Source: Candidatus Heimdallarchaeota archaeon (GTDB taxonomy: Archaea > Asgardarchaeota > Heimdallarchaeia > Heimdallarchaeales > Kariarchaeaceae). From it: DNA of 53,122 nucleotides. Location: contig WAKA01000180.1 in the NCBI GenBank assembly GCA_015523565.1, positions 1 through 53,122 of the forward strand. The letters run 5' to 3'. The position numbers and the translations under genes are program-made. The first letter of the stretch is position 1, and every line of letters starts with the position of its first letter. Below are positions 7,460 to 33,835 of this stretch, in pieces. The notes below the pieces were generated by a model. That model ran no database searches and was not told the DNA's origin. It worked only from the letters and a program-made list of their open reading frames with translations.

Positions 7460-7508
7460 ATGGTAGAAATAAGTCTGGCTGTTTAAGCCTTTTTGATTTT
7501 GGCAATCC

Positions 7509-7850
7509 CTAAATCTTACATTCGTGTTTTCTTTTTCTTTGGAAAGCATGAAGGAGTAATGTCAAGAACTTCTTTACGGGATATGCTTCCGCAACTTGTC
7601 CCATCAACTTTCCCAAAGGAAGTAGCCTCATGAGCTCAGTAATCGCCTCTGATTCTGAATACCACTTGTTACCTTTTACGACATGAAAACTTTTCCAATA
7701 CTGTAAATGCCCAATTCTTGCAATTCCTTCTTCCAAAATCATTGGATTTGACATGTTTACCACCTTTGTTTCCCTTCCTACAATATACCTGATTATTTTT
7801 GCAAATTTAGTACAGATGGAACAATCGTCGTCGTAGGTAATAATTGCCAC
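7509..7850 (-). CDS. DCC1-like thiol-disulfide oxidoreductase (DUF393 family)
   Basis: N-terminal YDDDCSIC (DxxCxxC) motif, about 113 aa, likely GTG start at 7850. Confidence 0.7.
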   Translation of the reverse strand: MAIITYDDDCSICTKFAKIIRYIVGRETKVVNMSNPMILEEGIARIGHLQYWKSFHVVKGNKWYSESEAITELMRLLPLGKLMGQVAEAYPVKKFLTLLLHAFQRKRKHECKI

Positions 7851-7951
7851 AATCAAATATTCCCAATGATGCAATTATTATTTTGCATAAATCCAATTAT
7901 TTTACTCTATTCTGGGGAAATTCATTAAAGTTGCAAATTTTGTCCTTATTC

Positions 7952-8854
7952 ATGAAACAAGCAATCTCTATTTCCTTAGGAAGCAAATCGAGAGATCATA
8001 AGGGTGTCATTGAACTTGGTGGTGAAAAAATAGAGGTACAAAGAATAGGGACAGATGGGGACACGACAAAGATGCAGATCCTTTACAGGGATCTTGACGG
8101 GAAGGTTGACGCTTTTGGTGCAGGTGGTTTTCTTTTTGGGTTCCATGTTGAAGACAAATTTTATGAACTTCGCACGGTCAAAAAACTGACAAAATATATT
8201 AAAAAAACCCCTATTGTTGATGGGAATGGTGTCAAAGACACAATTGAACGCACCTCATTGCAAAAAGTTTGGGATGAGGTTGCCCCGTTGTTTGAAGACA
8301 AACCAAAAACTGCCCTGTTGACATCTGCTGTCGACAGATATGGCATGGCAAAATCCGTTGAGGAGGCAGGGTTTGAAATGGTGTGTGGTGATTTTTACTT
8401 TGCCTTGGGGATTCCCATTAAAATTAGAAGTTTAAAAGGTGTCAGGCGCCTTGCGCGGGTCATGATGCCCATTGTCTCTTTCTTCCCCCTAAGCTGGCTT
8501 TACCCACTTGGCGAAAAACAAAAGGAAAGGACACCTAAATACGGAAAACTTTTCAAGAATGCCACCTTGATTGCAGGAGACTTTCTTTATACCAAAAAAT
8601 ATTCTCCAGATGACATGAAAGGAAAAATCATTCTGACAAATACCACCACACAAGAAGATCGTGACGACCTATTCGCAAGGGGTGTAGAAGCAATTATTAC
8701 GACCACTCCAGAGATCGGAGGTCGATCCTTTGGGACAAATGTCCTTGAAGCGGCAATTGTTGCCCACGTTGGATTGGGTCGCCCATTGACCTCTGAAGAA
8801 ATGAAAGAACAAGTTGAGAAATTGGGTCTTAAACCACAAGTTCATTTTCCCTGA
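7952..8854 (+). CDS. Conserved protein of the family auto-annotated 'quinate 5-dehydrogenase' (function unverified)
   Basis: SISLGSKSRDH, RIGTDGD, DGKVDAFG, PIVDGNGVK, SAVDRYGMA, GRSFGTNVLEA. ATG at 7952. Confidence 0.7.
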   Translation: MKQAISISLGSKSRDHKGVIELGGEKIEVQRIGTDGDTTKMQILYRDLDGKVDAFGAGGFLFGFHVEDKFYELRTVKKLTKYIKKTPIVDGNGVKDTIERTSLQKVWDEVAPLFEDKPKTALLTSAVDRYGMAKSVEEAGFEMVCGDFYFALGIPIKIRSLKGVRRLARVMMPIVSFFPLSWLYPLGEKQKERTPKYGKLFKNATLIAGDFLYTKKYSPDDMKGKIILTNTTTQEDRDDLFARGVEAIITTTPEIGGRSFGTNVLEAAIVAHVGLGRPLTSEEMKEQVEKLGLKPQVHFP

Positions 8855-8865
8855 GGTGGAATGCA

Positions 8866-9690
8866 ATGAAATATAAGGTTCCTTTTATTGTCCTCGCAGG
8901 TAGCCCCCCTACCAGAGATCAATTGATGGAATATGCAAATACAGACTATAAAGCATTGATAGATATCAATGGTAAACCCATGTTGACCCGAGTGTTGGAG
9001 GCAATTCGAGATTCCAACAGAGCTTCGTATATCCTCATAGTTGGTCTTCCCAAAGATAAAATAGAGTTGCCTGAAGGCATAGATGCAAATATCGTTGAAT
9101 TCTATGAAATTGAAGGCAAACAGGTTGACAAGATCATCAATTCATGCAAATATATTTATGACTTGGGTCAAAAAAATCCTGACATATTCCCTAAAGGCTC
9201 TTATCATACTGTGATAACAACTTCAGACATCCCTGCATTGACAGGTAGAACAATAGATGATTATTTGGATAGGTGCTTTGAAACAGATCATGCTTTCTAT
9301 TATTGTGTGGTTGAAAAAGAACACATGGAAAGGGAATTTCCCAATAGCGGTAGATCATGGATTAAAATGGATGGGAACAAATACTGTGGCGCTGATTTAG
9401 CCCTTTTCGATGTCACCTATGCGGAGCAATCCTATGATTTGCTTAAAGTAATCACGGAAAATCGAAAATCTTTCACCAAGGCTCTCTTCAAGGCTTCTCC
9501 AATCACGTTTTTCAAATATGTCCTCAAAATCGCAAAAATGAAAGATGTAGAGCGACTGATGACAAAGATTTTCGGCTTTCCCTCCAAGCTTATTATCGAC
9601 GAGGATGCTCGTATTGCTTTTGATGTTGACAAGCCTTACCAACTGGATTTGATGCGTTCTTACATTTCTTTACATGAAACTCCCAAGTAA
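8866..9690 (+). CDS. MobA-like NTP transferase (GT-A fold nucleotidyltransferase)
   Basis: IVLAG, KALIDINGKPML, TSDIP, FDVDKP. SD-like GAGGTG upstream; 11-nt gap from the previous gene. Confidence 0.8.
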   Translation: MKYKVPFIVLAGSPPTRDQLMEYANTDYKALIDINGKPMLTRVLEAIRDSNRASYILIVGLPKDKIELPEGIDANIVEFYEIEGKQVDKIINSCKYIYDLGQKNPDIFPKGSYHTVITTSDIPALTGRTIDDYLDRCFETDHAFYYCVVEKEHMEREFPNSGRSWIKMDGNKYCGADLALFDVTYAEQSYDLLKVITENRKSFTKALFKASPITFFKYVLKIAKMKDVERLMTKIFGFPSKLIIDEDARIAFDVDKPYQLDLMRSYISLHETPK

Positions 9691-10986
9691 TGTTCTTTCT
9701 ATAAACTCATCCGCGATCCATTTGAGATTTGTCGCTTGTTCCCTATCAATTGTTTCTTCCATGAATTTCAACTTGCTGATGCTCCTTTCAATTGATATGT
9801 CATACAGTGATTTTTCCGTTTGCATTACCTTTTCTCCTATTCTGCACCCGCAGGCAATCCCGTCCAGAAAAAGTTCTTTGATCTCATTTGAAACAGCGGC
9901 ATGTACTAAATCCATAGCCACTTTTTCTAAAGATGCATTGAATGACTTGGTAGTAAACTCAAGCATTGCTGCAATGACTGCACCCGCATTAGCCAAAAAA
10001 TCTGGAATGACAGTCACTCCGTTTTCTTCCAAAACTTTTCTTCCTTCAAATGAAAAGGGATAATTTGCGGCAGGCACAATGATTTTAGTTCTTGCTTTGA
10101 CAATTCTTTCTGCAATTTCTTGATCTATTCTCTCAACTCTTGTCCCTGGCACCAGTAGGTCGACAGTTACATCAAACAATGCATCTGTATCTAGTAATTC
10201 TATATCAAGGTCATAAATGAAATGGTCTCCCTTTTCCAAAAAAAGAGGCATGATCTTGTCAATGTCAAAATATCCCTCATCTGTGCAGTATTCTGAGTTT
10301 TTCTTCGCCACCACTGTCCCGAATCGATTAGAGAACGCCTTTAGTTTTGCCCTTCCCTTCAATAATTTTGCAATTCCGCTTCCAACTTTTCCAAACCCCT
10401 CTATTGAGTAATTTATTCCATCGAGTGGATCAACTTCTTTTTGAGTGGCATTTAATGTCTTGAATGTTTCTTCTGCCGCCACAACAATCCCATACCCTGT
10501 CAATATATTATCCAAAGGCAGTTCAAATTTTTCAGAAATCTGAGAAAGTAGGCCTTTTCTGGCTATATTCCCCATTCCATTTACTCTCAATGCATCTAAA
10601 TACCCTTCTTCAGAAGTCCCCATGTCTGGACCAGTTACCAATTGGATAAAAACGTCATTTGGATAACCTGTACAGGCTTTCATCTTAATGTTTCCAAGGT
10701 TTGCTCCCTTTATGAAGTCCGCAATCTCCCCGACAAATTCTTCTAGAACCTTTTGATCATATGGTTCATTACTTATGCCGCATTTAGCTCCTGAAAACGG
10801 AAGCTGATATGTTGCAAGTTTCAATGCCATTGATATTGATAACTTCTCAACTTCCTCTTTTGTGACATTGGGCATCATCCTAATTCCTCCGATACATAAC
10901 GGAAATTTTGTATGGGCAAACGAAACAAAAGCTCTTTCTTTATTGAAACAATATGTAAGAGGCTCGAATTCACTCCTCTCGTCCAT
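9670..10986 (-). CDS. Glu/Leu/Phe/Val dehydrogenase family protein (divergent)
   Basis: GGIRM, MALK, GAKCGI, GPDMGT, Rossmann motif EGFGKVG, PDFLANAG. Confidence 0.85.
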   Translation of the reverse strand: MDERSEFEPLTYCFNKERAFVSFAHTKFPLCIGGIRMMPNVTKEEVEKLSISMALKLATYQLPFSGAKCGISNEPYDQKVLEEFVGEIADFIKGANLGNIKMKACTGYPNDVFIQLVTGPDMGTSEEGYLDALRVNGMGNIARKGLLSQISEKFELPLDNILTGYGIVVAAEETFKTLNATQKEVDPLDGINYSIEGFGKVGSGIAKLLKGRAKLKAFSNRFGTVVAKKNSEYCTDEGYFDIDKIMPLFLEKGDHFIYDLDIELLDTDALFDVTVDLLVPGTRVERIDQEIAERIVKARTKIIVPAANYPFSFEGRKVLEENGVTVIPDFLANAGAVIAAMLEFTTKSFNASLEKVAMDLVHAAVSNEIKELFLDGIACGCRIGEKVMQTEKSLYDISIERSISKLKFMEETIDREQATNLKWIADEFIERTLLGSFM

Positions 10987-11110: not shown

Positions 11111-12331
11111 TTGCCGAACACTCATGATCAATTATTCAAGCCTTGGTATCTTTTTATTTTCGGATTTTTCTATTTTGGTCAGGGCTATTCGCTTGGCTCA
11201 CTTGCATTGATGTTTCCAATTTATATTAGGGATGTCCTAAACGTCAATGATGAGGCAACAACAATATTCATCAGTTCGATGCTCCTCTTTCCATGGTATT
11301 TGAAAGCAGTTTATGGTTTTCTTTCTGACAACTTTCGCATCGGTAGATTTGGTAGAAGAAAGCCATTTCTGATTTTTGCCGCTCTTTTATCTTTTTATGG
11401 ATGGACAACATTGGAACTATACAAATCTGTCAATTTGGGATTTATAATAAGTGCCTTGGCTTTGGCTTTGGGCTCTGCAATTTCCGATACTGTCATTGAT
11501 GGTTTGGGAGTTGAATTAACTCCAACTGAATATATCTCTAGACTTCAAGGCACCTCTTGGGCTGGAAGAGGCATTGGCATTGGCATGACTGGAATTGTGT
11601 CTTCCTTACTTGTAAAGTATTTTGGCTGGAAAACCATGATCGACGTATCTGCTTTTTTTGGGATTGCAATGGTTTTTTCTGTATTGATTCTTCCTGAATC
11701 CCCTGTTTCAGCAAACTTAAATCTTCGAAATTCCCTTTCCAGCATCTCTTCAATGTTGTCTGGATCTATTTCAAAACTGCTCTATATTCTCTTTTCTGGA
11801 GCATCTCTTACAATAATTCCCCTTTTTTCATTTCTTCTGAACAATGATTTGGGTTATCCAGTTGAAAACTTTGCAATTCCCTCTTTCCTTTTCTCTATTG
11901 GGGTGTTTTTCGGTTCTTATTCAATGGCATATCTTTTCATCAAGAATGAAACAAAAGCAAAAATTCTGCTTATTCATTTGCTATTCCTGACTACTATTGT
12001 TTTTGGAATGATTGCGGCAGAACTAAGATATCCATATCTTGTTAACATTTTTTTTGTAGCCTCTGGCTTTGGTACAGGATTGGTTGAATCGTACCAACTA
12101 AAAGTGATCCAAGAACTGTCTCCTGAAGATGTTGAAAGCACTGCCTTTGCAATATGGACTGGTATCTCAAATGTTGGACAATTTATTGTCGGAGGAATTG
12201 TCTTTTCACAAATTAGCAAACTTCTGAAACTAGAATTGATGAAAGTTATTCAACTGACCCATATTTGTGTCATATTTTCCATTATCGCCCTGTTTAAGTT
12301 CAAGTTTCATGAAAATCGTTCTGCTATATAG
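11111..12331 (+). CDS. MFS transporter (AmpG/BT1-like)
   Basis: About 12 TM helices; FPWYLK, SDNFRIGRFGRRKPF motif A, DTVIDG. Confidence 0.85.
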   Translation: MPNTHDQLFKPWYLFIFGFFYFGQGYSLGSLALMFPIYIRDVLNVNDEATTIFISSMLLFPWYLKAVYGFLSDNFRIGRFGRRKPFLIFAALLSFYGWTTLELYKSVNLGFIISALALALGSAISDTVIDGLGVELTPTEYISRLQGTSWAGRGIGIGMTGIVSSLLVKYFGWKTMIDVSAFFGIAMVFSVLILPESPVSANLNLRNSLSSISSMLSGSISKLLYILFSGASLTIIPLFSFLLNNDLGYPVENFAIPSFLFSIGVFFGSYSMAYLFIKNETKAKILLIHLLFLTTIVFGMIAAELRYPYLVNIFFVASGFGTGLVESYQLKVIQELSPEDVESTAFAIWTGISNVGQFIVGGIVFSQISKLLKLELMKVIQLTHICVIFSIIALFKFKFHENRSAI

Positions 12332-13431: not shown

Positions 13432-14100
13432 TTAATTCTTTTTTTGTAATGCAATCAAAAATGGGTTGTTTATTTTTTCAAATGCAATGGTGGATGCATC
13501 TCCATGTCCTGGCCAAAAGTCTGTATTGTTTGGAAGCTTCTCAACTAATTTCTTAAGTGATTTGTCCATTGTCTCTGGATCGCTGAAAGGAAAATCGGTT
13601 CGACCTATTGAAAGTTGAAAGAGTACATCACCTGTGAATGCTAAATTGGAATCTTCCACATAATATACCGTGGATCCAGGTGTATGACCTGGTGCATGGA
13701 TTGCCTCTATTCTGATACCTTCCAAATTCAAAATGATATCTGGCTCTATCCATTCGTCTGGCATTGAAATCGTTTTTGAAGGGAAACCAAACCTTTGTGG
13801 CCACTGGTTGAAGTCTGGTAATGGTTCCTTTTCAAATTTGCTTGCATATATTTTGCATCCATCCCCTGAAATTTTTTTGACTTCCCCTGCCCAACCTATG
13901 TGATCAAAATGTCCATGCGTAATAAGTATATGCTTAATCGGAGTTCCCCTATCCATCATTCTCTTCGCTATGTCAACTGCTTCTGGACCTCCTGGATCAA
14001 TCATGATCATTTTGTCCGTTCTGGAAAAAACAAAGCAGTTTGTCGCCAACGGAGAAAGAACACTATGTTCCCAATAACTGGCTTGCAAAATTGATTTCAC
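13432..14100 (-). CDS. MBL-fold hydrolase, glyoxalase II/YcbL-like
   Basis: IDPG, THGHFDH, PGHTPG, FTGDVLF, GRTD, PGHG. Confidence 0.9.
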   Translation of the reverse strand: MKSILQASYWEHSVLSPLATNCFVFSRTDKMIMIDPGGPEAVDIAKRMMDRGTPIKHILITHGHFDHIGWAGEVKKISGDGCKIYASKFEKEPLPDFNQWPQRFGFPSKTISMPDEWIEPDIILNLEGIRIEAIHAPGHTPGSTVYYVEDSNLAFTGDVLFQLSIGRTDFPFSDPETMDKSLKKLVEKLPNNTDFWPGHGDASTIAFEKINNPFLIALQKKN

Positions 14101-21757: not shown

Positions 21758-22189
21758 CTACATCTGCTGATAATTCATTCCCTGACGTGCTGCAATTTTC
21801 TTCTTAACCTTTTCCATTGTCAATGCTGATTTATCATCTTCCTGTATTTGTGTACTTATCCCTGAAAAAGAAGATGTAATGGATTTCTTTGTTCCTGCAT
21901 ATGCCATCCTGTCTCTGACAGATGATTCCATTGGCATCCAAAAGAGAAATAACATTCTTGTATCATCAAGCCCGACCCTGTTTTTTATCGGAAAATCATA
22001 AAGGACATATCTTGGTTCATTGTCTGGCAATGATTGCACCAAATGGTCAAACGGCTCATCACTTCTTTTTTCAAGTGTTATCTGTCCATCATGAATTTTC
22101 AACACCATTCCTTGAGGTTTTTTCTCAAATCTCATTTTGTTGTACTCTTCAATTAGCTCAGGTGGAATTTCAATGCCTGTTGTACTCAT
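21758..22189 (-). CDS. ADF/cofilin family actin-depolymerizing factor homology (ADF-H) protein
   Basis: 143 aa, colinear by eye with eukaryotic cofilins: MSTTGI, LPDNEPRYVLYDF, RMLFLFWMP, VRDRMAYAGTKKSI, GISTQIQ. Confidence 0.9.
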   Translation of the reverse strand: MSTTGIEIPPELIEEYNKMRFEKKPQGMVLKIHDGQITLEKRSDEPFDHLVQSLPDNEPRYVLYDFPIKNRVGLDDTRMLFLFWMPMESSVRDRMAYAGTKKSITSSFSGISTQIQEDDKSALTMEKVKKKIAARQGMNYQQM

Positions 22190-22587: not shown

Positions 22588-23250
22588 TTAAAACAGTTCT
22601 TTTGCGTTTTTCATTGGCTTGAATGCCCCAGTATATGATTGGGGGAATCTTACAAAAGCCTCTGCATGGTCTGTTCCAGCTTGTATCCCTCTCAATTTTG
22701 TACGATGGTTATGAAACTGTGAATAGAAGCCTTGACCTCCTTTATGCAATTGACTTTCATAACATTGAATTGCTTTCATCCTTTTATCATTTTCATCTGT
22801 AATATCAACCAAAATTTCAGGGAATGGTATAAGCACTGTGGTTTCTGCACCAAAAACTCCCTTAACTTGATGGGCGTCTCTATCCGCTGTTGTATGGCTA
22901 GCCCACTCCACCGCTTCCAATACGATATGGTGAACTCTTCTATGCTCTCTATGATAATCAAATGGGACGTGTGTTATGATATATTCTGGCTTAATCTCAA
23001 TTATCAAAGATATTATTTGTTTGATAATCTCGTCATTGTTTGCAGGTGTTACATTTCTATTCTTAAGAACAATCGGTCTGGCGCCAAGAATTTTACATGC
23101 AGATTTGAATTCCTCTTCCCTGTTTGGATCCGATGTCACACTGACTGCCCATGCTCCTCCTTTTTTTGCATAAATGGCCAAAGTTCCTCCTGCTGAAAAT
23201 GTCTCATCATCTTGATGTGCAAATATTGTCATAATCCGTTGCTTTTCCAT
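22588..23250 (-). CDS. PIG-L/LmbE-family de-N-acetylase, candidate BshB
   Basis: AHQDDE metal motif, DYHREH, Y.SQ, AEAF. ATG 23250 likely; the ORF is open to 23283. Confidence 0.85.
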   Translation of the reverse strand: MEKQRIMTIFAHQDDETFSAGGTLAIYAKKGGAWAVSVTSDPNREEEFKSACKILGARPIVLKNRNVTPANNDEIIKQIISLIIEIKPEYIITHVPFDYHREHRRVHHIVLEAVEWASHTTADRDAHQVKGVFGAETTVLIPFPEILVDITDENDKRMKAIQCYESQLHKGGQGFYSQFHNHRTKLRGIQAGTDHAEAFVRFPQSYTGAFKPMKNAKELF

Positions 23251-23392
23251 TAAAAACGCTCCAATTTCTAAAAATATTTGCATGTTAAAACTCTCATGTT
23301 GGTGAAATCACTAAATTTTCACAAATCTCTCACAATTTCAAGAATTTCTTCTTGAATCAAGACCACATCCATTTAATCCCACTTTTCGGTGC

Positions 23393-25588
23393 ATGAATAT
23401 GGTCTATTCTTTGGTTGCCTCAAAACTCAATCTCTCTGAAAATCAGGTCAGGACTGTCATGGGACTTGTTGAAAAAGGTGCAACAGTTCCTTTCATTGCA
23501 CGATACAGAAAGGAAATGACAAATGGTCTTGATGAAGAGGCAATTCGGAACATTATTTCTGAAACTGAAAAACAAAAAAAGCTGGCTGATAGGAAACTCT
23601 CCATTATTTCTTCTTTAAAAGAAAGAAACATTCTTTTTGAATCTCTCGAAAACATGATCAAAAATGCCCAGACTCTTGCAGAATTGGAATCCATTTATTC
23701 CCCCTATAAGACGTCAAGAAAAACAAGAGCTCAAAAAGCAAGGGAAATGGGTCTTGACGTATTGGTTGAGAAATTCAAGAAAACACCTCGGCAATTAAGA
23801 AGTATTATGCAGGATTTTCTCTCAACATCATCCTTCGATGAAGAAACGGTTGTGGATGGAATTAAAGACATTATCGCCGAAGATATGAGCGTGAATCAAA
23901 AGAGCAGGGAAAAATCTCTTGTTCTTTCACGCCAACAAGGTTATCTTCAAACCACACCTATTCCCCCAGAAAAACGGAAGGCCGCAAAAGGATATGAAGG
24001 ACAGGAAATGAAAGAATCCAAAATCGCTGAAGATGTAATGCAGCTAAAAATTTCTAGATTACGACCTCACCAGGCGTTGGCACTCAGAAGGGCTGAAAAG
24101 CGTGGTCAAATAAAGCTTAAATGGGAATTTCCTGAAAAAAGGATTATTTCAATACTTAAAGAAAACTTTCCTGTGAAATCAAGGGATATAGATGGCTTTG
24201 CTCAAAAGGTACTTGATGAATCCGCCAAAGATTCATACTCTCGATTATTGGGTCCAAGTCTTCAAAGACAAATTTATCGTGAACTCATAGAAAAAGCCGA
24301 ACAACATTCTATAGATGTATTTGCGAAAAATGTAAAAAACCTACTCTTACAACCCCCTCTTAAGGGTCATAAAATCATGGGACTGGATCCTGGTCTCAGG
24401 ACAGGCACAAAGGTTGCAATAATTGATGAAAATGGCAGTGTATTATATACTAGTACCGTCAATACCCTATCCACTAATTCTGCTGAAAAAGAATTTACCC
24501 ATCTTATCAATACCTATCATGTCACTTATATTGCATTAGGCAATGGTACTGGATCTAGAGATGTAGAAAAAATTCTTTCAAACATTTTCAAGAAAACTGG
24601 GTGCAAATATGCTATTGTTCCAGAAACTGGTGCCTCTGTATATTCCGCAAGTAAATTGGCACAGCAGGAATTTCCAGATCTTGATGTCTCTTTACGTGGT
24701 GCAATTTCCATTGCCCGTAGACTGATGGACCCAATGGCTGAACTCATAAAAATTGATCCCAAATCATTGGGTATTGGTCAATATCAACACGATCTCAATC
24801 AGAAATTACTCCAAAAAAAATTAGATGAGACATTGGAAGAAGTGGTGAACCTTGTTGGTGTTGATGTGAATACTGCATCTAGCCACCTTCTTCAATATGT
24901 GTCTGGGTTGAACAAGAAAATTGCTGATGCAATTGTAAAATTTCGAAAGACTAAACCTATAACAAACCGTGAGATGCTGAAATCAATCAAGGGGATTGGA
25001 GAAAAAACCTTTGAACAGTCCGCAGGTTTTTTGAGGGTATACAACGGCGATAATCCTCTTGATGCGACATCAATCCACCCAGAATCCTACTCTGTAACTA
25101 CTCAATTCCTTAGCAAACTTGGTTTTGAACTTTCAGACCTGCAAAAGAATCATTCTTCTGTTCAAAAAACAATCTCAAAACTTTCTTCCAAACAAATCAA
25201 TTCCTTTATCGAGGAACTTAACATTGGAAAAGAAACCTTTTTGGATATTTTAGATAATCTGAAAAACCCATTTTTTGATCCACGTGGTTCATTCCAAGAA
25301 ACAATGTTTGATCAAAACGTACGAACTATCGAAGATCTTGAGGTTGGCATGATACTTCCTGGCGAAGTCAGAAATGTCACCGATTTTGGTGCGTTTGTTG
25401 ATATAGGTGTTAAACATGATGGTCTTGTTCATATTTCCCAATTGTCCGATAAATTTGTAAACCATCCCAGCGAAGTGGTAAAGGTCGGGCAAAAAGTTCA
25501 TGTGAAAATAATCTCTGTGGAAAAAAATCGGATCTCACTTTCCATGAAAGAAGTAAAAGATAAATCCCTACTTCAAAAAGAAAATTAG
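23393..25588 (+). CDS. tex: Tex transcription accessory protein (YqgF, HhH and S1 domains; Spt6-related)
   Basis: TVPFIARYRKE, GLDPGLRTG, GASVYSAS, DPMAELIKIDPKSLGIGQYQHD, S1 motif FGAFVDIG...GLVHISQ. Confidence 0.95.
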   Translation: MNMVYSLVASKLNLSENQVRTVMGLVEKGATVPFIARYRKEMTNGLDEEAIRNIISETEKQKKLADRKLSIISSLKERNILFESLENMIKNAQTLAELESIYSPYKTSRKTRAQKAREMGLDVLVEKFKKTPRQLRSIMQDFLSTSSFDEETVVDGIKDIIAEDMSVNQKSREKSLVLSRQQGYLQTTPIPPEKRKAAKGYEGQEMKESKIAEDVMQLKISRLRPHQALALRRAEKRGQIKLKWEFPEKRIISILKENFPVKSRDIDGFAQKVLDESAKDSYSRLLGPSLQRQIYRELIEKAEQHSIDVFAKNVKNLLLQPPLKGHKIMGLDPGLRTGTKVAIIDENGSVLYTSTVNTLSTNSAEKEFTHLINTYHVTYIALGNGTGSRDVEKILSNIFKKTGCKYAIVPETGASVYSASKLAQQEFPDLDVSLRGAISIARRLMDPMAELIKIDPKSLGIGQYQHDLNQKLLQKKLDETLEEVVNLVGVDVNTASSHLLQYVSGLNKKIADAIVKFRKTKPITNREMLKSIKGIGEKTFEQSAGFLRVYNGDNPLDATSIHPESYSVTTQFLSKLGFELSDLQKNHSSVQKTISKLSSKQINSFIEELNIGKETFLDILDNLKNPFFDPRGSFQETMFDQNVRTIEDLEVGMILPGEVRNVTDFGAFVDIGVKHDGLVHISQLSDKFVNHPSEVVKVGQKVHVKIISVEKNRISLSMKEVKDKSLLQKEN

Positions 25589-25649
25589 AAAACTTTTATA
25601 CTTTTGAAAGATAATGTAAGCTATCCCTGATAATTTATGGAGATGTCAT

Positions 25650-27827
25650 GTGGTGATGTCGGAACAAATACCCCTTAAAATTCCAGATGAGTATCAATTT
25701 CTGTTTGATGCGATACCTGAAAAAGACAAGGAAAGTTTCTATATAACTTGGGCTCGAATGGAGAATGGAGGGGATCTTTTCCTTGATTTCACGAAATCCA
25801 TAAAAAGAACTCTTGAAATTTGGAAATCACCACACCCTATGTGGCTTTACATTTATTCCAGACTTATTTTTACACAATCACGGTATGATATTCTAGAGAA
25901 ATTGGCAAAACAATATCCCAATGATTCTTCAATAAAACTACATCTTGCACGAGTCATGATTTACAAAACAGAGTTTGACAAGGCAAAAGAGCTGTGCGAT
26001 GATATTCTCCTAAAAATAGACTTGGAAAGAGAGAGCAACTTGCTGGATACCATCATTCTTTTGGACACATATTTCACAATCGGCATGATTCATATTTATA
26101 AAAGAGAGTTTGAGATGGCTGATGAAATAATTGAGAAATATGAAAGCCTGACGGATCAACATCGCGTCAAAAAATGGATCCCCAAATCAGAATTTGCAAG
26201 CTATCTTATTCCATCATACCTCTTAAAATCTCTCAAGGCTTTATACACTGGTCAATTTGATCTGCTCTCTACCACTGTTCATGAAGTCAACAATTGGTTC
26301 CCTGGTGTCAAAGATCTCTGGTATCGAGGTTTCTATCTGAACTTGTCTGGTATCGCAAACATCATGGCAAATGAAACCAACAGGGGGATTCAAGATTTAA
26401 AAATGGCATTAAGATGCTATAAGAAGTTGCATGACAGAAGAGATTATTCCGTGGTTGGGGCTAATCTTGCAGTCACATTGATATTGCAAGGTAAAAGAGG
26501 AGAAGGGCGAGATGTACTTGAATCTCTTCTTGATCCTTTGGAAGAACTCCAAAATTATAATCTTGCATTAACCCATACCTTGTTAGTTAGTAAGTTGTAC
26601 ATGGATGAAAAGAAGAATTCCAAAGCCAAAGAATTATTGCAGAGAGCCGAAAGTCTCGCAAAGAAAGTGGAAATAACCGAACCTGCCACATTTGCATACT
26701 TTGCAATTTTGCATTCCCGACTTGGAAATCCTGAACGGGCAGAGTATTACAGTCAGAAACTGAAGTCAATGATTGACCCTGACCTTTTAAACTTTAAAGG
26801 GGAGATTGAACTTCCTGAAAATACACATGGAAAAGACCTTTATACTGCTATTTGGTATCTGAATGCATCATCAATCCAGTCCATGCTCCAAGGGAATCTC
26901 AAAGATTCATATCAAATTTTGACTCAAGCCCTTGAAATTGCAGAAAAAGAGAACATGTATGATTCTGTCCTTGAGCTTTCAACAGTTTTCATTGAGGTAC
27001 TCCTGAAAAAATATATGATTGAAAATGATACTTCCTACCTTCATGAAGCCATTGACGTTCTTGCAGATTTAAGGCCTCTTATCCTTCAAATTGAAAATCC
27101 CTACTACAATACCCTCATTTTCTTAACACAGATTTACATTCTAATTGCCTTAAATCAAATTAATGCTGCATTGAACCTTGCTGATGAAGTTCAAGACCTT
27201 TATTTGAAAACGGCAGTCGATATCCGTGGGGATCAATCCTATGAATTGGAATTGGTCACCAAGAGATTGGATGCGTTAACTCGCCCTCGAACTCCAGAAG
27301 AAGATGAAATTGGATACAACGTTTGGTTTTTGGGAAATTCCTATGTAAGTAAACTTGCGGCATTTGAGGCAATTAGACTAATCAATGATCTTCAAATCCA
27401 ACAAAGTGCAATCGGTGAAAAACCAAGAGAAACATCATCTAAACCTTCTTTGGTATTGATAACTCAGTCCACTGGTCAAGGTGTTTTTTCAAGAACCATG
27501 GATGAAAACGACCAAATTGATGAACAACTAATTTCTGCATTCCTAATGGCAATATCGACCTTTTCAAAAGAGGTTTTGGGTGGTGGAAGTCTTAACAAGA
27601 TAGAACAGGTAGGGCATGTACTCTTGATGGAACATATTGGAAAGGGATATACCGCAGTTTTGGTTATTAAGGAAGATTCGTATACTATCCGTAAAAAATT
27701 CAAAAAATTCATCAATGAGTTAAAAATGTTGCGTATTACCGATTATTTTGGTATAGAGTCCTTATTATCCCCTGGAGACCCACAATACGAGTTAATCAAC
27801 AATCTTGTTGAAGAGATATTTTTCTAG
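25650..27827 (+). CDS. TPR-like helical repeat protein with a C-terminal longin-like domain
   Basis: TPR-like helices (LNLSGIA...ALRCY, ANLAVTL). C-terminus LITQSTGQGVFS...DEQLISAFLMAISTFSKEV...I.Q is a longin-like pattern. Confidence 0.7.
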   Translation: MVMSEQIPLKIPDEYQFLFDAIPEKDKESFYITWARMENGGDLFLDFTKSIKRTLEIWKSPHPMWLYIYSRLIFTQSRYDILEKLAKQYPNDSSIKLHLARVMIYKTEFDKAKELCDDILLKIDLERESNLLDTIILLDTYFTIGMIHIYKREFEMADEIIEKYESLTDQHRVKKWIPKSEFASYLIPSYLLKSLKALYTGQFDLLSTTVHEVNNWFPGVKDLWYRGFYLNLSGIANIMANETNRGIQDLKMALRCYKKLHDRRDYSVVGANLAVTLILQGKRGEGRDVLESLLDPLEELQNYNLALTHTLLVSKLYMDEKKNSKAKELLQRAESLAKKVEITEPATFAYFAILHSRLGNPERAEYYSQKLKSMIDPDLLNFKGEIELPENTHGKDLYTAIWYLNASSIQSMLQGNLKDSYQILTQALEIAEKENMYDSVLELSTVFIEVLLKKYMIENDTSYLHEAIDVLADLRPLILQIENPYYNTLIFLTQIYILIALNQINAALNLADEVQDLYLKTAVDIRGDQSYELELVTKRLDALTRPRTPEEDEIGYNVWFLGNSYVSKLAAFEAIRLINDLQIQQSAIGEKPRETSSKPSLVLITQSTGQGVFSRTMDENDQIDEQLISAFLMAISTFSKEVLGGGSLNKIEQVGHVLLMEHIGKGYTAVLVIKEDSYTIRKKFKKFINELKMLRITDYFGIESLLSPGDPQYELINNLVEEIFF

Positions 27828-28360
27828 TTTTCTTCTCCATAAAGCTCATCCATAATATGTTTTTGAATTTCAACGACTTCTGATGACGTTTTCGCCTTCG
27901 AATATTTTTCCAATCGTTCAAAATTCAATTGAATGAATGTGTTGCCATACTTGAAGTGACTTGCATATTTTTTTGCCTTGTCCTTATATCCTAAAATCCA
28001 TAGGGCGGCAATGGTTGCCTCAATGGTGTTCAATTTTGTCGGTTTTCCGAAATTCACGGTATTGGCCGCAACAAGAAATGGTAGGGCTCGAGGTATCCCC
28101 TTCTGAAAAAATGGCTTCAATGACTCTATCTGGTTCCAACTCCCATCAATCAACACCAATCCAAACTCTTCTACAACTTCTCTATCTGCAGGTGAAAGGG
28201 CAATGTTTGATATGGGCGAAAGAACAAGTGCCTTTCCTATTTTATTTGCTTTAATGATCTTTGCAAGTCCAAATCTAATCATGCGACTTCCTGAACATTT
28301 CTTGGGATCGCATTGATCAAAATGAATGATTTTTACATTGGGCTTTGACATATGTTCCAC
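27824..28360 (-). CDS. tsr3: rRNA aminocarboxypropyltransferase Tsr3
   Basis: DQCDPKKCSG, LSPAD, DGSW, RALPFLVAANTVNFGKP, LNTIEA. Confidence 0.93.
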   Translation of the reverse strand: MEHMSKPNVKIIHFDQCDPKKCSGSRMIRFGLAKIIKANKIGKALVLSPISNIALSPADREVVEEFGLVLIDGSWNQIESLKPFFQKGIPRALPFLVAANTVNFGKPTKLNTIEATIAALWILGYKDKAKKYASHFKYGNTFIQLNFERLEKYSKAKTSSEVVEIQKHIMDELYGEEN

Positions 28361-28460
28361 TCTTACGTTGGTTTTCTTTTAAAAAATGATTAGTTTTGTT
28401 TTGCCTATCTCTTATAGGTCATCCTAAAATCTTATTTACTTTGCCTTAATTTTTAAAGCA

Positions 28461-29558
28461 TTGAAAATAGGTATTGTTGGCTATCCCACTCTAGGTGGCA
28501 GTGGGATGGTTGCTTTCAACCTTGCATCAGAATTGGCTAATGCAGGTCATATTGTCCATTATATATCCTACAAGCCACCTTTTTTTTATTCCGAAAAATT
28601 AGTTTCTGATAACCTAAAATTCCACCAAGTGCCTATTCAAACATATCCACTCTTCCGCGATATCGGCTCAAATTATGGAATTCAATTAAGTAGCTACCTG
28701 ATTTCTCTACAGAAAAGAGAACCTATGGATCTGATTAACGTTCACTATTCAATTCCACATGCAGTAAGTGCCTATCTTCTAAATCAAGCAACAAATATTC
28801 CTGTCATTAACACTTTTCATGGTTCAGACGTTCATTTATTGGGACAAATGGACAACTTCAATCAGACTCTGAAGGCAGTTCTTCCTTCATTGTATAATAC
28901 GGCTGTATCAAATTTCCTTGCAAAACTTGCCCAAAGAACTTTTGACTTGAAGGAAATTCCCTCTACAATCTACAATTTTGTGGACAATCAAAAATTTTAT
29001 CCGATCCCTTCTGAAAATCGTGAACTCACAATTGTTGCGGCAGGAAACTACAGACCGATTAAACGCTTTCCATTCTTGGTAAAAACCTTCGCAAAAATAT
29101 GCAGAGACTATCCGGATTGGAAGCTTAGAATGATCGGAGATGGTCCTGAAAGATCTCTTTGCTATAAGATTGCTTATGACCTAAAAGTAACGAAACATGT
29201 CGAATTTGTTCCACCAACAAAGAACATTCCTTTAGAGTTGCAAAAAGCTTCAATTTTGGCGGCTCCAAGCCAAATGGAATCTTTTGGGTTGACTATTGCT
29301 GAAGGGATGTCTTCTGGATTACCAATTTGGGCTTCAAGAGTTGGTGGAATTCCTGAAGTCTGTATTCATGGTGAAAATGGTTTGCTTTTCCATCCTAGTG
29401 ATGACCAAGGTGCGGAAATGGCTCTAAGAACACTTATGGATGACCGCTCACTTCGAGAAAGGCTTGGAAAAAAGGCAAGGGAACGAATTTTAAATTATTT
29501 CAATCCACAAAAGATTGTGAATGAGTATTTAAAATTTTACAGGAAAATCGCGAACTAA
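28461..29558 (+). CDS. bshA: N-acetyl-alpha-D-glucosaminyl L-malate synthase (GT4)
   Basis: BshA-typical KIGIVGYPTLGGSG, YPLF, HYSIPHA, FHGSDV, IYNFVD, NYRPIKR, ESFGL..AE. Confidence 0.85.
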   Translation: MKIGIVGYPTLGGSGMVAFNLASELANAGHIVHYISYKPPFFYSEKLVSDNLKFHQVPIQTYPLFRDIGSNYGIQLSSYLISLQKREPMDLINVHYSIPHAVSAYLLNQATNIPVINTFHGSDVHLLGQMDNFNQTLKAVLPSLYNTAVSNFLAKLAQRTFDLKEIPSTIYNFVDNQKFYPIPSENRELTIVAAGNYRPIKRFPFLVKTFAKICRDYPDWKLRMIGDGPERSLCYKIAYDLKVTKHVEFVPPTKNIPLELQKASILAAPSQMESFGLTIAEGMSSGLPIWASRVGGIPEVCIHGENGLLFHPSDDQGAEMALRTLMDDRSLRERLGKKARERILNYFNPQKIVNEYLKFYRKIAN

Positions 29559-31132
29559 GGACATTGATTTGCTCCTCCTCCCCCTGGGGTTTTAATGATC
29601 AATGTTTCTCCCTTTTCAGCTTTAAATGTGGTTCTTCCTTTGAGCATTCTCTTCTTTCCCTCTTTCGAAATTAGAATGTTCTCCCCGTTTGCGCCTGGAC
29701 CTGCTCCGAATATGCCCCATGGCCTAAATTTCCTTCTTTCCGTTTGCAATGAAACAGTGGCATCACTCTGAAATTCATATTCTCTGACAATGCCATTTCC
29801 ACCTGAAAAATCCCCAGTTCCCCCCGACATTTCTCTAATTTCGTATCGTTTGACTATCAATGGAAACTGACTTTCCAATGCTTCTATTGGAGTGTTCTCT
29901 GTGTTAGTCATATGGCATTGTATCGCGGATGTTCCACCTTCCCTGCATGTAGCGCCACTCCCGCCCCCTATTGTTTCATAAATAGTCCAATTGCCATCCT
30001 CCTTTGTGCCGCCAATTATGACATTATTCATGGTTCCTTGAGATGCTGCTGGAAGCCAAGGTATTAACTGAACCATTGCACCAAGAATAGTGTCTACAAT
30101 CCGTTGACTTGTTTCAGTATTCGCACTTGATGTAGCTACCCTGAAATCAGGATTAACAACACTTCTTTTTGGAGCCTTAATTTCTATAGGTCTAAAACAT
30201 CCCCAATTTGTAGGTACGTTTCTTCCAATCAATAGCCTGACAACATAATATGCCGCTGCCGTAGTAATGGAAAAGGGTGCATTGACATTCCCTGGTTGTT
30301 GTGAATCTGATCCTTCAAAATCAAAAATAATACGGTTATCTTCCGTAATGGTTACTTTGCACCTTATTTTTACAGGGTTGTCATTGTATCCATTGGAATC
30401 AAGGTAATCCTCAAATAAAGCACTACCCTTGGGAAATGATTCTATTATTTTTTCAGTTCCTTGTTTTGATTCTTTGAAAAGTGCTTCATGATATTTCTCA
30501 ACCTGTTCAAACTCTGTATTTTGGATCAATTCCTCTAGTCTTTTGACGCCAAGCATCAATGCAGAATATTGGGCATTAAGATCTCCCTTTCTTTCACGGG
30601 GTGTTCTCACATTTTCTAAAATCAGGTCCATGACATCCTTATTGACTTCCCCTTTTGAGAAAAGCTTGATTGGTGGGATGATCAAGCCCTCTTGATACAC
30701 TTCTGTAGAATTTGCAGGTAGTGAGCCTGGTACCATCCCCCCAACGTCTGCATGATGTGCCCGTGTTGCAACAATATACCTTAATTCCATGTTTTTGTCA
30801 AAAACAGGTGCTAAAAGTGAAATATCTGGTAGATGTGTTCCTCCAAATTCTGCACGGGGAGAATTGACAATGATTGCATCCCCTGCTTCCCATTTCCCCT
30901 TATACTTTTCTAAAATTGGTTTCGCCACAAACCCCATAGACCCTAAATGCACAGGAATGGCCTCTGCCTGAGCAACCAACCTCGCTTGATTGTCAAAAAT
31001 GGCACAAGAAAAATCTGCCCTTTCTTTGATGTTGGGTGAATATGATGATTTTCTGAGTACCTTGCTCATTTCTTCTGCAATCCCTTCTAATCTATTTTGA
31101 AGGATTGTCAGGCTAATTGGGTCAATTTCCAT
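29555..31132 (-). CDS. Hydantoinase/5-oxoprolinase subunit B
   Basis: SPNIKERADFSCA, PVHLGSM, GTHLPD, HHADVGG, QEGL, QGTMNN, YETIGGG, TPGGGG. Confidence 0.95.
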   Translation of the reverse strand: MEIDPISLTILQNRLEGIAEEMSKVLRKSSYSPNIKERADFSCAIFDNQARLVAQAEAIPVHLGSMGFVAKPILEKYKGKWEAGDAIIVNSPRAEFGGTHLPDISLLAPVFDKNMELRYIVATRAHHADVGGMVPGSLPANSTEVYQEGLIIPPIKLFSKGEVNKDVMDLILENVRTPRERKGDLNAQYSALMLGVKRLEELIQNTEFEQVEKYHEALFKESKQGTEKIIESFPKGSALFEDYLDSNGYNDNPVKIRCKVTITEDNRIIFDFEGSDSQQPGNVNAPFSITTAAAYYVVRLLIGRNVPTNWGCFRPIEIKAPKRSVVNPDFRVATSSANTETSQRIVDTILGAMVQLIPWLPAASQGTMNNVIIGGTKEDGNWTIYETIGGGSGATCREGGTSAIQCHMTNTENTPIEALESQFPLIVKRYEIREMSGGTGDFSGGNGIVREYEFQSDATVSLQTERRKFRPWGIFGAGPGANGENILISKEGKKRMLKGRTTFKAEKGETLIIKTPGGGGANQCP

Positions 31133-31174
31133 AAGGTATGTCCTGTTCGATATTTCTAAAACCTTGTCAAAACC

Positions 31175-32107
31175 CTATAATTTGATTAAAATATCCGCAA
31201 GTTTTTCAGCATCATCCAACGCCCTGTCCAATGTCTTTTCACCTGGGATAACATCTCCAATTGCAAAAATTGCAGGATGACTTGTTTGATAGCTGTTTGT
31301 AATAATATGGCCATTCTCATCCATTTCAACCAGACCTTTAACAATGTCTGTATTGGGTTGTGGCTCTCCTTCAATAAAAACAACATCGATTTGCAAATCT
31401 TGCCGTCCTTCAACACTGTCGAATTTAATTCCCTCTACAACATCCGATCCATATATCTCCACATTTTCCACCTTTTTGTAGAATTTTACTGAATCATTGT
31501 TTTTCAATGCCTCAAAATGATCAATTTGCGGGACTTCCTCTCCAATCCATAGAACACTTAATTCTCCAACTACTCCAGAAATGAATCTTGCACTTTTTAA
31601 GGTATATTTGTGATTCCCTATGATTGCCGCCTTTCTCCCCTTGAATAAATTGACATCACAAACCGCACAATCAGAAACACCCTTGTGCAAGTATTCAGTT
31701 TCCCCCTTGAAACCAAAATTTTGTTGTTTTGATCCTGTGGCAACAATCAAAATATTTGCATAGAAATCAACCATCTTTGTTTTGATCAAGAGATTTTCGC
31801 CCTTATCCTCAACGAGAATTGCCTTGCTTGATCTATGTTTTACCCCACTTTGTTTTGCCTCCTCCAATTTAGTCTCTATCCATTTCATGCCTTTTGTATC
31901 TGCGTCTATCTTTTCTGAATCTTCAATATACCCTGCCTTTGCGATTTGGGAATCATATGGACTGCCTAAAACATAAACGTCCTTGCCTGATTCTGCTAGT
32001 TTCTTGGCGAGAGTCAGTCCTGCCACACCCGAACCTAAAACCAAAATGTCTGTCTTTACTGGATCAAAAGTAGGCATTGAAAACATATCATATGTCATCC
32101 TTTTCAT
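31175..32107 (-). CDS. Thioredoxin reductase-like FAD oxidoreductase with a degenerate NADPH-binding site
   Basis: GSGVAG, ATG, GVSDCAVCD, FAIGD. The expected GGGxxA motif is replaced by IIGNHKYT. Confidence 0.8.
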   Translation of the reverse strand: MKRMTYDMFSMPTFDPVKTDILVLGSGVAGLTLAKKLAESGKDVYVLGSPYDSQIAKAGYIEDSEKIDADTKGMKWIETKLEEAKQSGVKHRSSKAILVEDKGENLLIKTKMVDFYANILIVATGSKQQNFGFKGETEYLHKGVSDCAVCDVNLFKGRKAAIIGNHKYTLKSARFISGVVGELSVLWIGEEVPQIDHFEALKNNDSVKFYKKVENVEIYGSDVVEGIKFDSVEGRQDLQIDVVFIEGEPQPNTDIVKGLVEMDENGHIITNSYQTSHPAIFAIGDVIPGEKTLDRALDDAEKLADILIKL

Positions 32108-32206
32108 ATAGATTAATGCTTTGTATCAACCCAAACTCATTGATAAATTTTAAAGATTAATGGGGTGATACCATTTAAATTAAAAAGAAATAAAAAAAAG
32201 GAGATT

Positions 32207-33835
32207 ATGGAACATGAGCACAAGGGGATTAACCCTAATGTTCTCTATGATAAAGTTGTCCTTGGTATGGAAAAGGATCTTGGATCTAAACTATGGGGAA
32301 AAGTACCTCAATCAATTGAAAATATCCCGGAATTGATTACCAGAAAAACAAATAAAACCTCAAAAGAAACTCTGAACAAACTTGTAGATGTTCTTAGGGA
32401 TTTTCATCAAACAAACAATGTTTATTCTGAAAAGGTAGAGGCAAACCTCTTAAAAATCAAGAATGGATCCGTTTTTGTCGGACATCAACCTGTCTTGCTT
32501 GGTGGTCCTGGGTTTATTGCAAATAAAATAGCTGCATTGTCAGCAATCACTGATGAATTAGCTAAACATAATATCCACTTTGCGCCTATTTTCATGATTG
32601 GTGATTATGATGGGCTTCAAAAAGAGTTGGGAAGAACATATTATCCCAATCCAATTTCTGGAAATGCAACGATATTGGATGCAGAACGAGCAATTGATGT
32701 TCCAGATGATACCGTAATTCATTCAGTAAATGTTCCTGACGAAAAATGGTTCTTAGAAATCCTTGCTCAACTTGAGTCTTCTTTCAACGGTTTTAAAAAA
32801 CAAGTGAAAGTTTCTGATAAAAGAAAAATTCTTGAAGAACGGTTTTCCCACATTGCTTCCTTTCTTAGATTGACCCATTCTTATTCGAAAACATTTCCAG
32901 ATTTTTTTGTCAAGGTTTGGGGTTATCTGACCAACAAATTAAACGATTATGGGATTGTTTTCCTTCCTACATCTCTGCCGACCATCAGGAAACTCTATGG
33001 TTCCGCTTTATTCAAAATGGCTCAAAACCATGAGATATATGTTCATGAATTTAACGAAACCTACAATTGGATCTCAAGTCTAGGTTATCATCCCACTCTT
33101 CCAAAAAGGGATCTTAAATATCTTCCATTCTTCTATGAATGCCCTTGCACACAATTTCGTGTACCATTGGAAATCAATGGAAACAATGGTCATGGTAAGT
33201 GCAAAAATTGTGGACACACTATTGATATTCCAATTGATGAGCTTGATTCATTCATGAACCACATTGAAAAAATCGGTCCACGTGTTGATTCTTCACAAGT
33301 TGCGTTTCAAGATCTTCTCAACATCCAAGTGCGGATTTCGGGTCCTGGTGAAATTGCCTACTATACAATTGTTTCTCCTGCTGTTCGTGCCGCTGGATTT
33401 GAAACCCCTGTGTTTTTTAAGTACAAAAGGGTCTTCTATAACACCCCTTGGAACGAAAAACTTGGTAAACTTCTTGCTCAACGCAAACAACCTTCATTGC
33501 ATACCTCCGAATTGTTCAAACTTGTCCGAAAGAGAATTGATGCCATAAAAAATGATGACTTGGATAACTTTAGAGATGCAGAAATTTCCATGGATCGTTT
33601 CATTAATGCGACATTTCAAAACCTAGGAAAATATAGGACCAAGCTTGATGCCCAAAAATATTTGTCATGGATGTTCGGGCAGTTTGCGCCCCAAAAATTT
33701 GGACAGGAGGTGTCATGGGTTTGGATAGATATGGCATTACAGACTGGATTGAATGATTATATCCCAACATACCGTCGATTATACCACAAATATTCAATTC
33801 CGGGTTTAAAGCAATTCATCAATACAATGACCTGA
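32207..33835 (+). CDS. bshC: Bacillithiol cysteine-adding enzyme BshC-like
   Basis: VGHQPVLLGGPGFIANK (cf. TGQQxGLxxGPLYxxxK), PIFMIGDYD, GPGEIAYY. ATG 32207 with AGGAG SD and TTTAAAT upstream. Confidence 0.78.
   Translation: MEHEHKGINPNVLYDKVVLGMEKDLGSKLWGKVPQSIENIPELITRKTNKTSKETLNKLVDVLRDFHQTNNVYSEKVEANLLKIKNGSVFVGHQPVLLGGPGFIANKIAALSAITDELAKHNIHFAPIFMIGDYDGLQKELGRTYYPNPISGNATILDAERAIDVPDDTVIHSVNVPDEKWFLEILAQLESSFNGFKKQVKVSDKRKILEERFSHIASFLRLTHSYSKTFPDFFVKVWGYLTNKLNDYGIVFLPTSLPTIRKLYGSALFKMAQNHEIYVHEFNETYNWISSLGYHPTLPKRDLKYLPFFYECPCTQFRVPLEINGNNGHGKCKNCGHTIDIPIDELDSFMNHIEKIGPRVDSSQVAFQDLLNIQVRISGPGEIAYYTIVSPAVRAAGFETPVFFKYKRVFYNTPWNEKLGKLLAQRKQPSLHTSELFKLVRKRIDAIKNDDLDNFRDAEISMDRFINATFQNLGKYRTKLDAQKYLSWMFGQFAPQKFGQEVSWVWIDMALQTGLNDYIPTYRRLYHKYSIPGLKQFINTMT

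Follow-up and report, generated by a model that had tools for sequence, protein, structure and literature searches.

A predicted Asgard-type bacillithiol pathway encoded by three genes of a Kariarchaeaceae archaeon

The 53,122-nucleotide contig WAKA01000180.1 of a Candidatus Heimdallarchaeota archaeon (Kariarchaeaceae; assembly GCA_015523565.1), referred to here as the window, carries genes from the same three enzyme families that produce the sugar-cysteine antioxidant bacillithiol (BSH) in bacteria. The reading that we favor, with a probability of about 0.68, is an Asgard-type BSH pathway whose three genes extend over 11 kb in the window's genus, and which includes recycling by YpdA and a TrxR-like reductase. 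The three genes are bshA (28461–29558, plus strand), an Asgard-type bshB candidate of the PIG-L family (22588–23250, minus strand), and an Asgard-type bshC-like gene (32207–33835, plus strand). An earlier reading of the window from its sequence alone (the sequence-only reading) had proposed that a BshA-like GT4, a PIG-L enzyme, and a BshC-like ligase within about 11 kb belong to one pathway, and all three open reading frames (ORFs) are intact at these positions.

In the proposed pathway, BshA would join the N-acetylglucosamine (GlcNAc) of uridine diphosphate GlcNAc (UDP-GlcNAc) to L-malate, the PIG-L zinc enzyme would strip the acetyl group to produce glucosaminyl-malate (GlcN-malate), and the BshC-like enzyme would couple cysteine to the amino group thus freed, so that Cys-GlcN-malate or a closely similar compound is formed. 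The oxidized disulfide would be recycled by an NADPH-dependent YpdA/Bdr homolog, which is encoded on another contig of the genome (G000 C134). A TrxR-like flavoprotein without an NADPH site probably acts as a further reductase in the thiol system, specific to the family and dependent on a different electron donor. The substrates and products of all these steps, as well as the role of the TrxR-like protein, are what we infer from the observations described below.

The GT4 enzyme matches BshA over its whole length

The bshA gene starts with a TTG codon and encodes a retaining GT4 enzyme of 365 residues, the predicted N-acetylglucosaminyl-L-malate synthase. The protein scores 286.7 bits on the BshA equivalog model TIGR03999, the curated cut-off of which is 273.7 bits, with residues 1–364 aligned to positions 1–374 of the 375 in the model; in a six-frame search of the genome the score is 284.7 bits. 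The model search thus bears out the identification of this GT4 as BshA. The best matches among solved structures are all BshA enzymes (PDB: 2jjm, 3mbo, 5d00, and 6n1x), with E-values from 6e-61 to 7e-51 over residues 1–365. The next solved relative is MshA, which matches with an E-value of 8.5e-20 in the donor half alone. MshA and other GT4 enzymes align to the window protein only from about residue 86–190 on, and the acceptor (N-terminal) half has matches to BshA families and structures only. The enzyme is predicted to use UDP-GlcNAc as the donor and L-malate as the acceptor. The named relatives of the protein come from Heimdall archaea, Bathyarchaeota, Acidobacteriota, and Melioribacteraceae; Firmicutes, Deinococcus, and an outgroup are not among them.

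Orthology identifies the candidate deacetylase

The PIG-L ORF covers positions 22588–23283 of the minus strand, and its orthologs begin at the methionine that gives the coordinates 22588–23250. The encoded PIG-L/LmbE zinc de-N-acetylase scores 66.6 bits on PF02585 (cut-off 28.2), and among the NCBIfam models it matches BshB1 and BshB2 best. The genome encodes four PIG-L paralogs, none of which reaches a BshB cut-off. The three paralogs located elsewhere (G000 C25, C126, and C203; L003:1489-2184, L004:1204-1896, and L005:1201-1920) score 92.2, 82.4, and 71.7 bits on BshB1. They are mutually 34–37% identical, and their BshB1 scores (72–92 bits) lie above that of the cluster-linked copy; a function as conjugate amidase or chitobiose deacetylase is possible for them.

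The window protein was selected as the BshB candidate because the gene neighborhood of its orthologs settles the question. It is 57–64% identical to the bsh-linked PIG-L proteins of the Asgard loci L015, L017, and L019, and 38% identical to that of L020, whereas the other three paralogs are only 23–27% identical in the same comparison. Judged by these identities, the window copy alone is the ortholog of the PIG-L protein that adjoins bshA and bshC in other Asgard genomes. A PDB search with the single window sequence did not separate BshB (E-value of 1.6e-8) from diacetylchitobiose deacetylase (5e-8), but a profile of six orthologs did: it matches the BshB structures 2ixd and 6p2t with E-values of 9e-24 and 1.7e-23, compared to 1e-16 for diacetylchitobiose deacetylase (Dac) and 5e-9 for MshB. 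The grouping with chitobiose deacetylases that the sequence-only reading had considered as an alternative is thus disfavored. All six orthologs retain the zinc ligands His12, Asp15, and His103, as well as the AHxDDE motif and the last histidine of the DY(H/N)xxH motif. The motifs of the window protein align to the zinc-ligand region of BC1534, in which the ligands are His12, Asp15, and His113.

The BshC-like protein forms a separate branch with the BshC fold

The bshC-like ORF opens at position 32165, and the ATG at 32207, with a GGAG box 5 nucleotides upstream, fits the 542-residue form of the protein in databases. The protein scores 63.1 bits on PF10079 (gathering cut-off 27) over residues 49–417, and a sequence search of the PDB returned one match, B. 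subtilis BshC (E-value of 4e-6). The AlphaFold model, calculated from an alignment of 25 relatives, has a mean predicted local distance difference test score (pLDDT) of 93.9. The solved fold that Foldseek places at the top is that of B. subtilis BshC (PDB: 4wbd), with an E-value of 1.9e-21, a template modeling (TM) score of 0.70 by both lengths, and 585 aligned columns, and the runner-up is class I lysyl-tRNA synthetase with a TM-score of 0.39. Both the Pfam match and the fold support the earlier description of the ORF at 32207 as BshC-like. The motifs GQQ..GGP..NK, PxF..D.D, and GPGE..Y (GPGExxY) are invariant in the archaeal clade and are also present in B. subtilis BshC. The clade also has a Cys-rich, zinc-ribbon-like insert, composed of C-x-C or C-x4-C followed by C-x2-C in a small beta subdomain, of which two cysteines are invariant.

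A profile of the BshC-like protein was searched exhaustively against 1.84 billion representatives. The archaeal clade gives full-length matches of 250–800 bits, after which the scores drop sharply to ~120 bits and below. The low range contains bacterial BshC representatives, which reach 417–538 bits on TIGR03998, as well as other BshC-like proteins that have no TIGR03998 match. Because the fold and motifs are shared with BshC, and because the score gap is sharp and the insert is the clade's own, the sequence and the predicted structure place the protein in the BshC superfamily as a separate, uncharacterized Asgard-type branch. The addition of cysteine to GlcN-malate is predicted from this relationship. 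The named relatives of the protein are from Heimdallarchaeota LC_2 and Kariarchaeaceae metagenome-assembled genomes. A second TIGR03998 match in the genome (C167, E-value of 0.0018), which contains an internal TAG, was regarded as a chance match.

The three genes co-occur and cluster in Asgard genomes

The distribution of the genes was determined by searching a single sample of 251 genomes from the phylum with each query; the families in this sample are labeled f1 (the window's own), f2, f5, f6, f10, f13, and f16. BshA above the cut-off is present in 111 genomes. With an E-value limit of 1e-55, BshA is present in 118 genomes, including 9/9 of f1, 25/26 of f2, 56/59 of f10, and 16/19 of f16. 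The PIG-L ortholog is present in 113 genomes (9/9, 26/26, 57/59, and 17/19 of the same families), and the BshC-like protein in 133 (9/9, 25/26, 56/59, and 17/19), so that the tallies by family nearly coincide. Most other families of the sample yielded the set rarely or not at all, as in f13 with 0–2 of 54 genomes. The expected co-occurrence across Asgard genomes is thus observed, and the PIG-L ortholog group both co-occurs and clusters with bshA and bshC.

The order of the genes is TrxR-like, bshC, GT4, PIG-L in L017; GT4, PIG-L, TrxR-like, bshC in L019; and PIG-L followed by a GT4 gene that overlaps bshC in L020. Contiguous three-gene clusters are present in many f10 and f16 genomes (e.g., G103:C4 165734-169312 and G075:C1 1043640-1047274); therefore, the compact cluster is the common arrangement, and the 11-kb spread is local to the window's genus. 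A congener recovered from other samples shows the gene order of the window. Since this order recurs in the congener, and more distantly related Asgard genomes have the three genes side by side, the grouping is not due to chance.

Two families of the window's class deviate from this pattern. In f6, a BshA scoring 405–423 bits is encoded ~700 bases from a canonical BshC, which scores 380–386 bits on TIGR03998, above the cut-off (L024, G229:C90:60715-65241; L025, G119:C20:26840-31354), and the Asgard-type BshC-like protein and PIG-L ortholog were not found in f6 by the searches of the 251-genome sample. Therefore, two distinct sets of bsh genes, bacterial-type and Asgard-type, are present in one archaeal class. 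In f5, 15 of 17 genomes have a more divergent BshC-like gene, the product of which scores 25 bits on PF10079, below the cut-off; BshA and the PIG-L ortholog were not found in this family at the queries and thresholds used. The f5 gene in L026 (G136:C6:180500-199500; positions 8659–10326, minus strand) adjoins a class I/II aminotransferase gene. A gene of similar size adjoins bshC in L020, where Pfam identifies it as an aminotransferase, and in L027. On the contig of JGI 3300075153 with P0036, three tandem genes of the DinB_2/MST type, a thiol S-transferase family, are located directly beside bshA, and an inositol-1-phosphate synthase gene is located 1 kb from the PIG-L gene.

Proposed redox partners

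The YpdA/Bdr homolog (G000 C134, positions 11344–12306; L007:1489-2535) scores 370.6 bits on TIGR04018, the cut-off of which is 339.9 bits, and matches B. cereus Bdr (PDB: 7a76) with an E-value of 1.2e-68. In the phylum sample, the TIGR04018 cut-off is exceeded in 8 of the 251 genomes, six of the nine of f1 and two of the sister family f2. Among 14 control genomes, the only ones to pass the cut-off are those of B. subtilis, Thermus, and Deinococcus, which produce BSH. The YpdA gene shows no linkage to the bsh genes, and in G045, where they share a contig, ~170 kb separate them. The position of Cys14 of Firmicute YpdA is occupied by valine in the homolog from the window's genome; Cys14 is reported to be buried and to be replaced in YpdA proteins of other phyla (bioRxiv 10.1101/2020.12.02.408641).

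The TrxR-like flavoprotein is encoded at positions 31175–32107 of the minus strand, head-to-head with bshC, from which it is separated by an AT-rich intergenic region of 99 bp (32108–32206), as read from the sequence. The protein scores 143.9 bits on TIGR01292, under the cut-off of 343 bits. Its flavin adenine dinucleotide (FAD) motifs and CxxC motif (CAVC) are kept, and the sequence G(N/S)H(K/E)YT occupies the place of the NADPH motif GxGxxA in five of the five aligned orthologs. Orthologs were found in 10 of the 11 f1 genomes and in none of the 29 genomes from elsewhere in the order, and the TrxR-like gene is the divergently transcribed neighbor of the bshC-like gene in all nine genomes in which both were located.

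The genome also encodes two DinB-family proteins, one of which is MST/DUF1572-like. GshA and GCS2 (gamma-glutamylcysteine ligase) gave no match in the 90%-complete genome, which counts in favor of a BSH-type pathway.

Besides the TrxR-like flavoprotein, the sequence-only reading had suggested a glyoxalase-II-like metallo-beta-lactamase and a DCC1-like CxxC protein as partners. All three are present in the window, and comparative support was obtained for the TrxR-like protein but for neither of the others. The metallo-beta-lactamase gene (13432–14100, minus strand; a generic Lactamase_B match) is 9 kb from the PIG-L gene with unrelated genes between, and the metallo-beta-lactamase near bshC in L018 differs from it in length; no support was found for a link to the thiol genes. 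The DCC1-like ORF (7509–7874, minus strand) is a marginal match, with 28.7 bits against a Pfam cut-off of 27.8, a difference of 0.9 bits, and is located 15 kb away. L018 has one DCC1-like gene, 5 kb from bshC, and this single case is too thin to include the ORF among the partners.

Genomic context and archaeal origin of the contig

The PIG-L gene is flanked by a gene for a 143-residue cofilin/ADF-family protein just downstream (21758–22189, minus strand; PF00241, 87.9 bits), a eukaryote-like signature protein, and by a full-length Tex/Spt6-like gene (23393–25588, plus strand) with Tex_N, YqgF, HHH, and S1 domains, which is also beside the PIG-L gene in the congener L015. The gene for hydantoinase B (29555–31132, minus strand) lies between bshA and the TrxR-like gene, 22 kb from that of the hydantoinase/oxoprolinase A subunit (5480–7549, minus strand). 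Hydantoinase B adjoins bshA and the TrxR-like gene in the window's genus only and is not between these genes in L017–L020, and it was left out of the proposed system.

The contig is archaeal. Genes for cofilin/ADF, Spt5 NGN-KOW, Tsr3, and TYW3, which are archaeal or Asgard hallmarks, are located on it, and its G+C content is even at 0.34–0.42. The source genome is a metagenome assembly of 233 contigs with 90% completeness and an estimated contamination of 1.95%. The DNA originates from hydrothermal-vent metagenomes. Positions 28461–33835 are contained in four DNA runs of one hydrothermal-vent study, one of which may be the source, and no RNA datasets are listed as containing them.

Bacillithiol or a related thiol

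Several observations weigh against a BSH pathway. The window PIG-L protein scores 69.9 bits on BshB1 (TIGR04001; cut-off 182.5) and 64.4 bits on BshB2 (TIGR04000; cut-off 195.25), and the BshC-like protein scores 66 bits on TIGR03998 (cut-off 265.8). The BshB and BshC assignments of the sequence-only reading thus hold at the level of Pfam, where PF02585 and PF10079 are passed, and fail at the level of equivalogs. The BshC-like protein has ~16% identity to B. subtilis BshC and carries its Cys-rich insert where Bacillus BshC is without cysteines. True bacterial BshC proteins match the archaeal profile at roughly 100 bits over positions ~6–480 of 541, mostly within the N-terminal 400–480, and even with bacterial BshC, reconstitution of the reaction has not been achieved. 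The BshA of the window is the lowest-scoring full-length BshA in the sample of 251 genomes. The three genes do not form an operon in the window's genus, where unrelated genes intervene. The bacilliredoxins BrxA/B (PF06491) and BrxC/YtxJ (TIGR04019) have no match with an E-value of 0.01 or below in the 90%-complete genome, and BSH was never detected in archaea (Rawat and Maupin-Furlow 2020).

BshA and YpdA favor BSH itself as the product, and the divergence of the deacetylase and the BshC-like enzyme allows for an analog. Judged by sequence, the product is most likely bacillithiol or a close Cys-GlcN analog. The proposal that the cell uses bacillithiol or a variant as its thiol is partly supported, by the family, fold, clustering, and YpdA evidence. 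Because BshB and BshC equivalog membership fails, we infer rather than observe the product and its position as the main thiol.

The alternative that comes closest to this reading is a different Cys-GlcN thiol, with an aglycone other than malate or with a modified cysteine, in the synthesis of which the divergent deacetylase and ligase may have co-evolved with another substrate. The failed BshB and BshC equivalog membership, the sharp score gap between the BshC-like clade and bacterial BshC, the clade's own Cys-rich insert, and the lowest BshA scores of the phylum in the window's genus are all consistent with it, as is the inositol-1-phosphate synthase gene near the cluster on one related contig. 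N-methyl-BSH, a known natural variant of bacillithiol, provides a precedent. However, BshA scores above the malate-synthase equivalog cut-off in a full-length match that takes in the acceptor domain, and the YpdA/Bdr homolog above its cut-off points to a BSH-like disulfide, which makes a different thiol unlikely, if still worth serious consideration. A more specific proposal appears more doubtful: the Asgard-type BshC-like/PIG-L branch would make an undescribed Cys-GlcN thiol, and the TrxR-like protein would be either its dedicated reductase, driven by ferredoxin or deazaflavin, or the partner missing from the reconstitution of BshC. If it were true, Asgard archaea would have their own low-molecular-weight thiol redox system. 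Asgard archaea are the closest known relatives of eukaryotes, and we know of no low-molecular-weight thiol measured in any of them.

It is improbable that the genes serve no soluble thiol at all, and that the GT4 and PIG-L enzymes instead build a GlcN glycolipid or glycoconjugate, as in glycosylphosphatidylinositol (GPI) or glucosaminyl-archaetidylinositol, to which the BshC-like protein adds another acyl or aminoacyl group. PIG-A, which is likewise a GT4 enzyme, and PIG-L, the namesake of the Pfam deacetylase family, both act in GPI synthesis; the chemistry of BshC-family enzymes is unproven; and f5 has a BshC-like gene where BshA and the PIG-L ortholog were not found with the queries and thresholds used. 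Nevertheless, the GT4 of the window matches BshA over its whole length and no PIG-A domain is reported in it, the YpdA/Bdr and DinB/MST-type transferases suit a thiol system, and the association of the three genes resembles that of the BSH genes in bacteria. BSH genes are typical of bacteria, and the assembly has 233 contigs and some estimated contamination (1.95%), which could point to bacterial DNA misbinned or misassembled into an archaeal genome. This explanation is hardly credible, given the archaeal hallmark genes and the even G+C content of the contig, the gene order shared with a congener from other samples, and the more than 100 genomes of the phylum that carry the set. The Asgard-type BSH pathway remains the reading that we prefer.

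Comparison with known systems

The idea of BshA and BshC in Asgard archaea is already in print. Rawat and Maupin-Furlow (2020) listed 39 archaeal InterPro matches each for BshA and BshC, mostly from Asgard archaea, and only two for YpdA, and Heimdall entries at NCBI already carry the names BshA and BshC. In a RefSeq survey from 2025, the complete BSH pathway was reported for no archaeon. The results presented here add the missing middle enzyme, BshB, identified by orthology and co-occurrence; a bona fide YpdA/Bdr homolog, confined to f1 and some f2 genomes; the consistent head-to-head placement of the TrxR-like gene and bshC; and the coexistence of archaeal-type and bacterial-type bsh sets within one class. 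The divergent BshC proteins, with their possible zinc site and conserved flavoprotein neighbor, may provide new material for the study of the unsolved BshC reaction.

The gene set of the window is like the bacterial BshA-BshB1/B2-BshC pathway with YpdA/Bdr, as found in B. subtilis, B. anthracis, S. aureus, Deinococcus, and Thermus, in that the same three enzyme families are arranged in the same logical order. BshA and YpdA/Bdr pass their cut-offs, the zinc ligands of PIG-L are the same, and the ligase has the fold and motifs of BshC. In contrast to the bacterial systems, the Asgard BshB-like and BshC-like branches score far under the equivalog cut-offs, the BshC-like protein has the Cys-rich insert, bacilliredoxins were not found in the window's genome, valine replaces Cys14 of Firmicute YpdA, and bshC has as its neighbor a TrxR-like gene whose product lacks the NADPH site. 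The pathway is here predicted for an archaeal host. The bsh genes of f6 belong to the same Asgard class, but the f6 BshC passes TIGR03998 and the f6 BshA scores 405–423 bits. The MshA-MshB-MshC pathway of mycothiol in Actinobacteria also differs. The MshA model matches the window GT4 in the donor half only, with 67.8 bits compared to 462.5, the MshB score is 34 bits compared to 224, and the window ligase is BshC-like rather than CysRS-like as MshC is. The two pathways are nevertheless alike in their logic, in which a GT4 enzyme is followed by a PIG-L deacetylase and then by a cysteine ligase to form the Cys-GlcN core.

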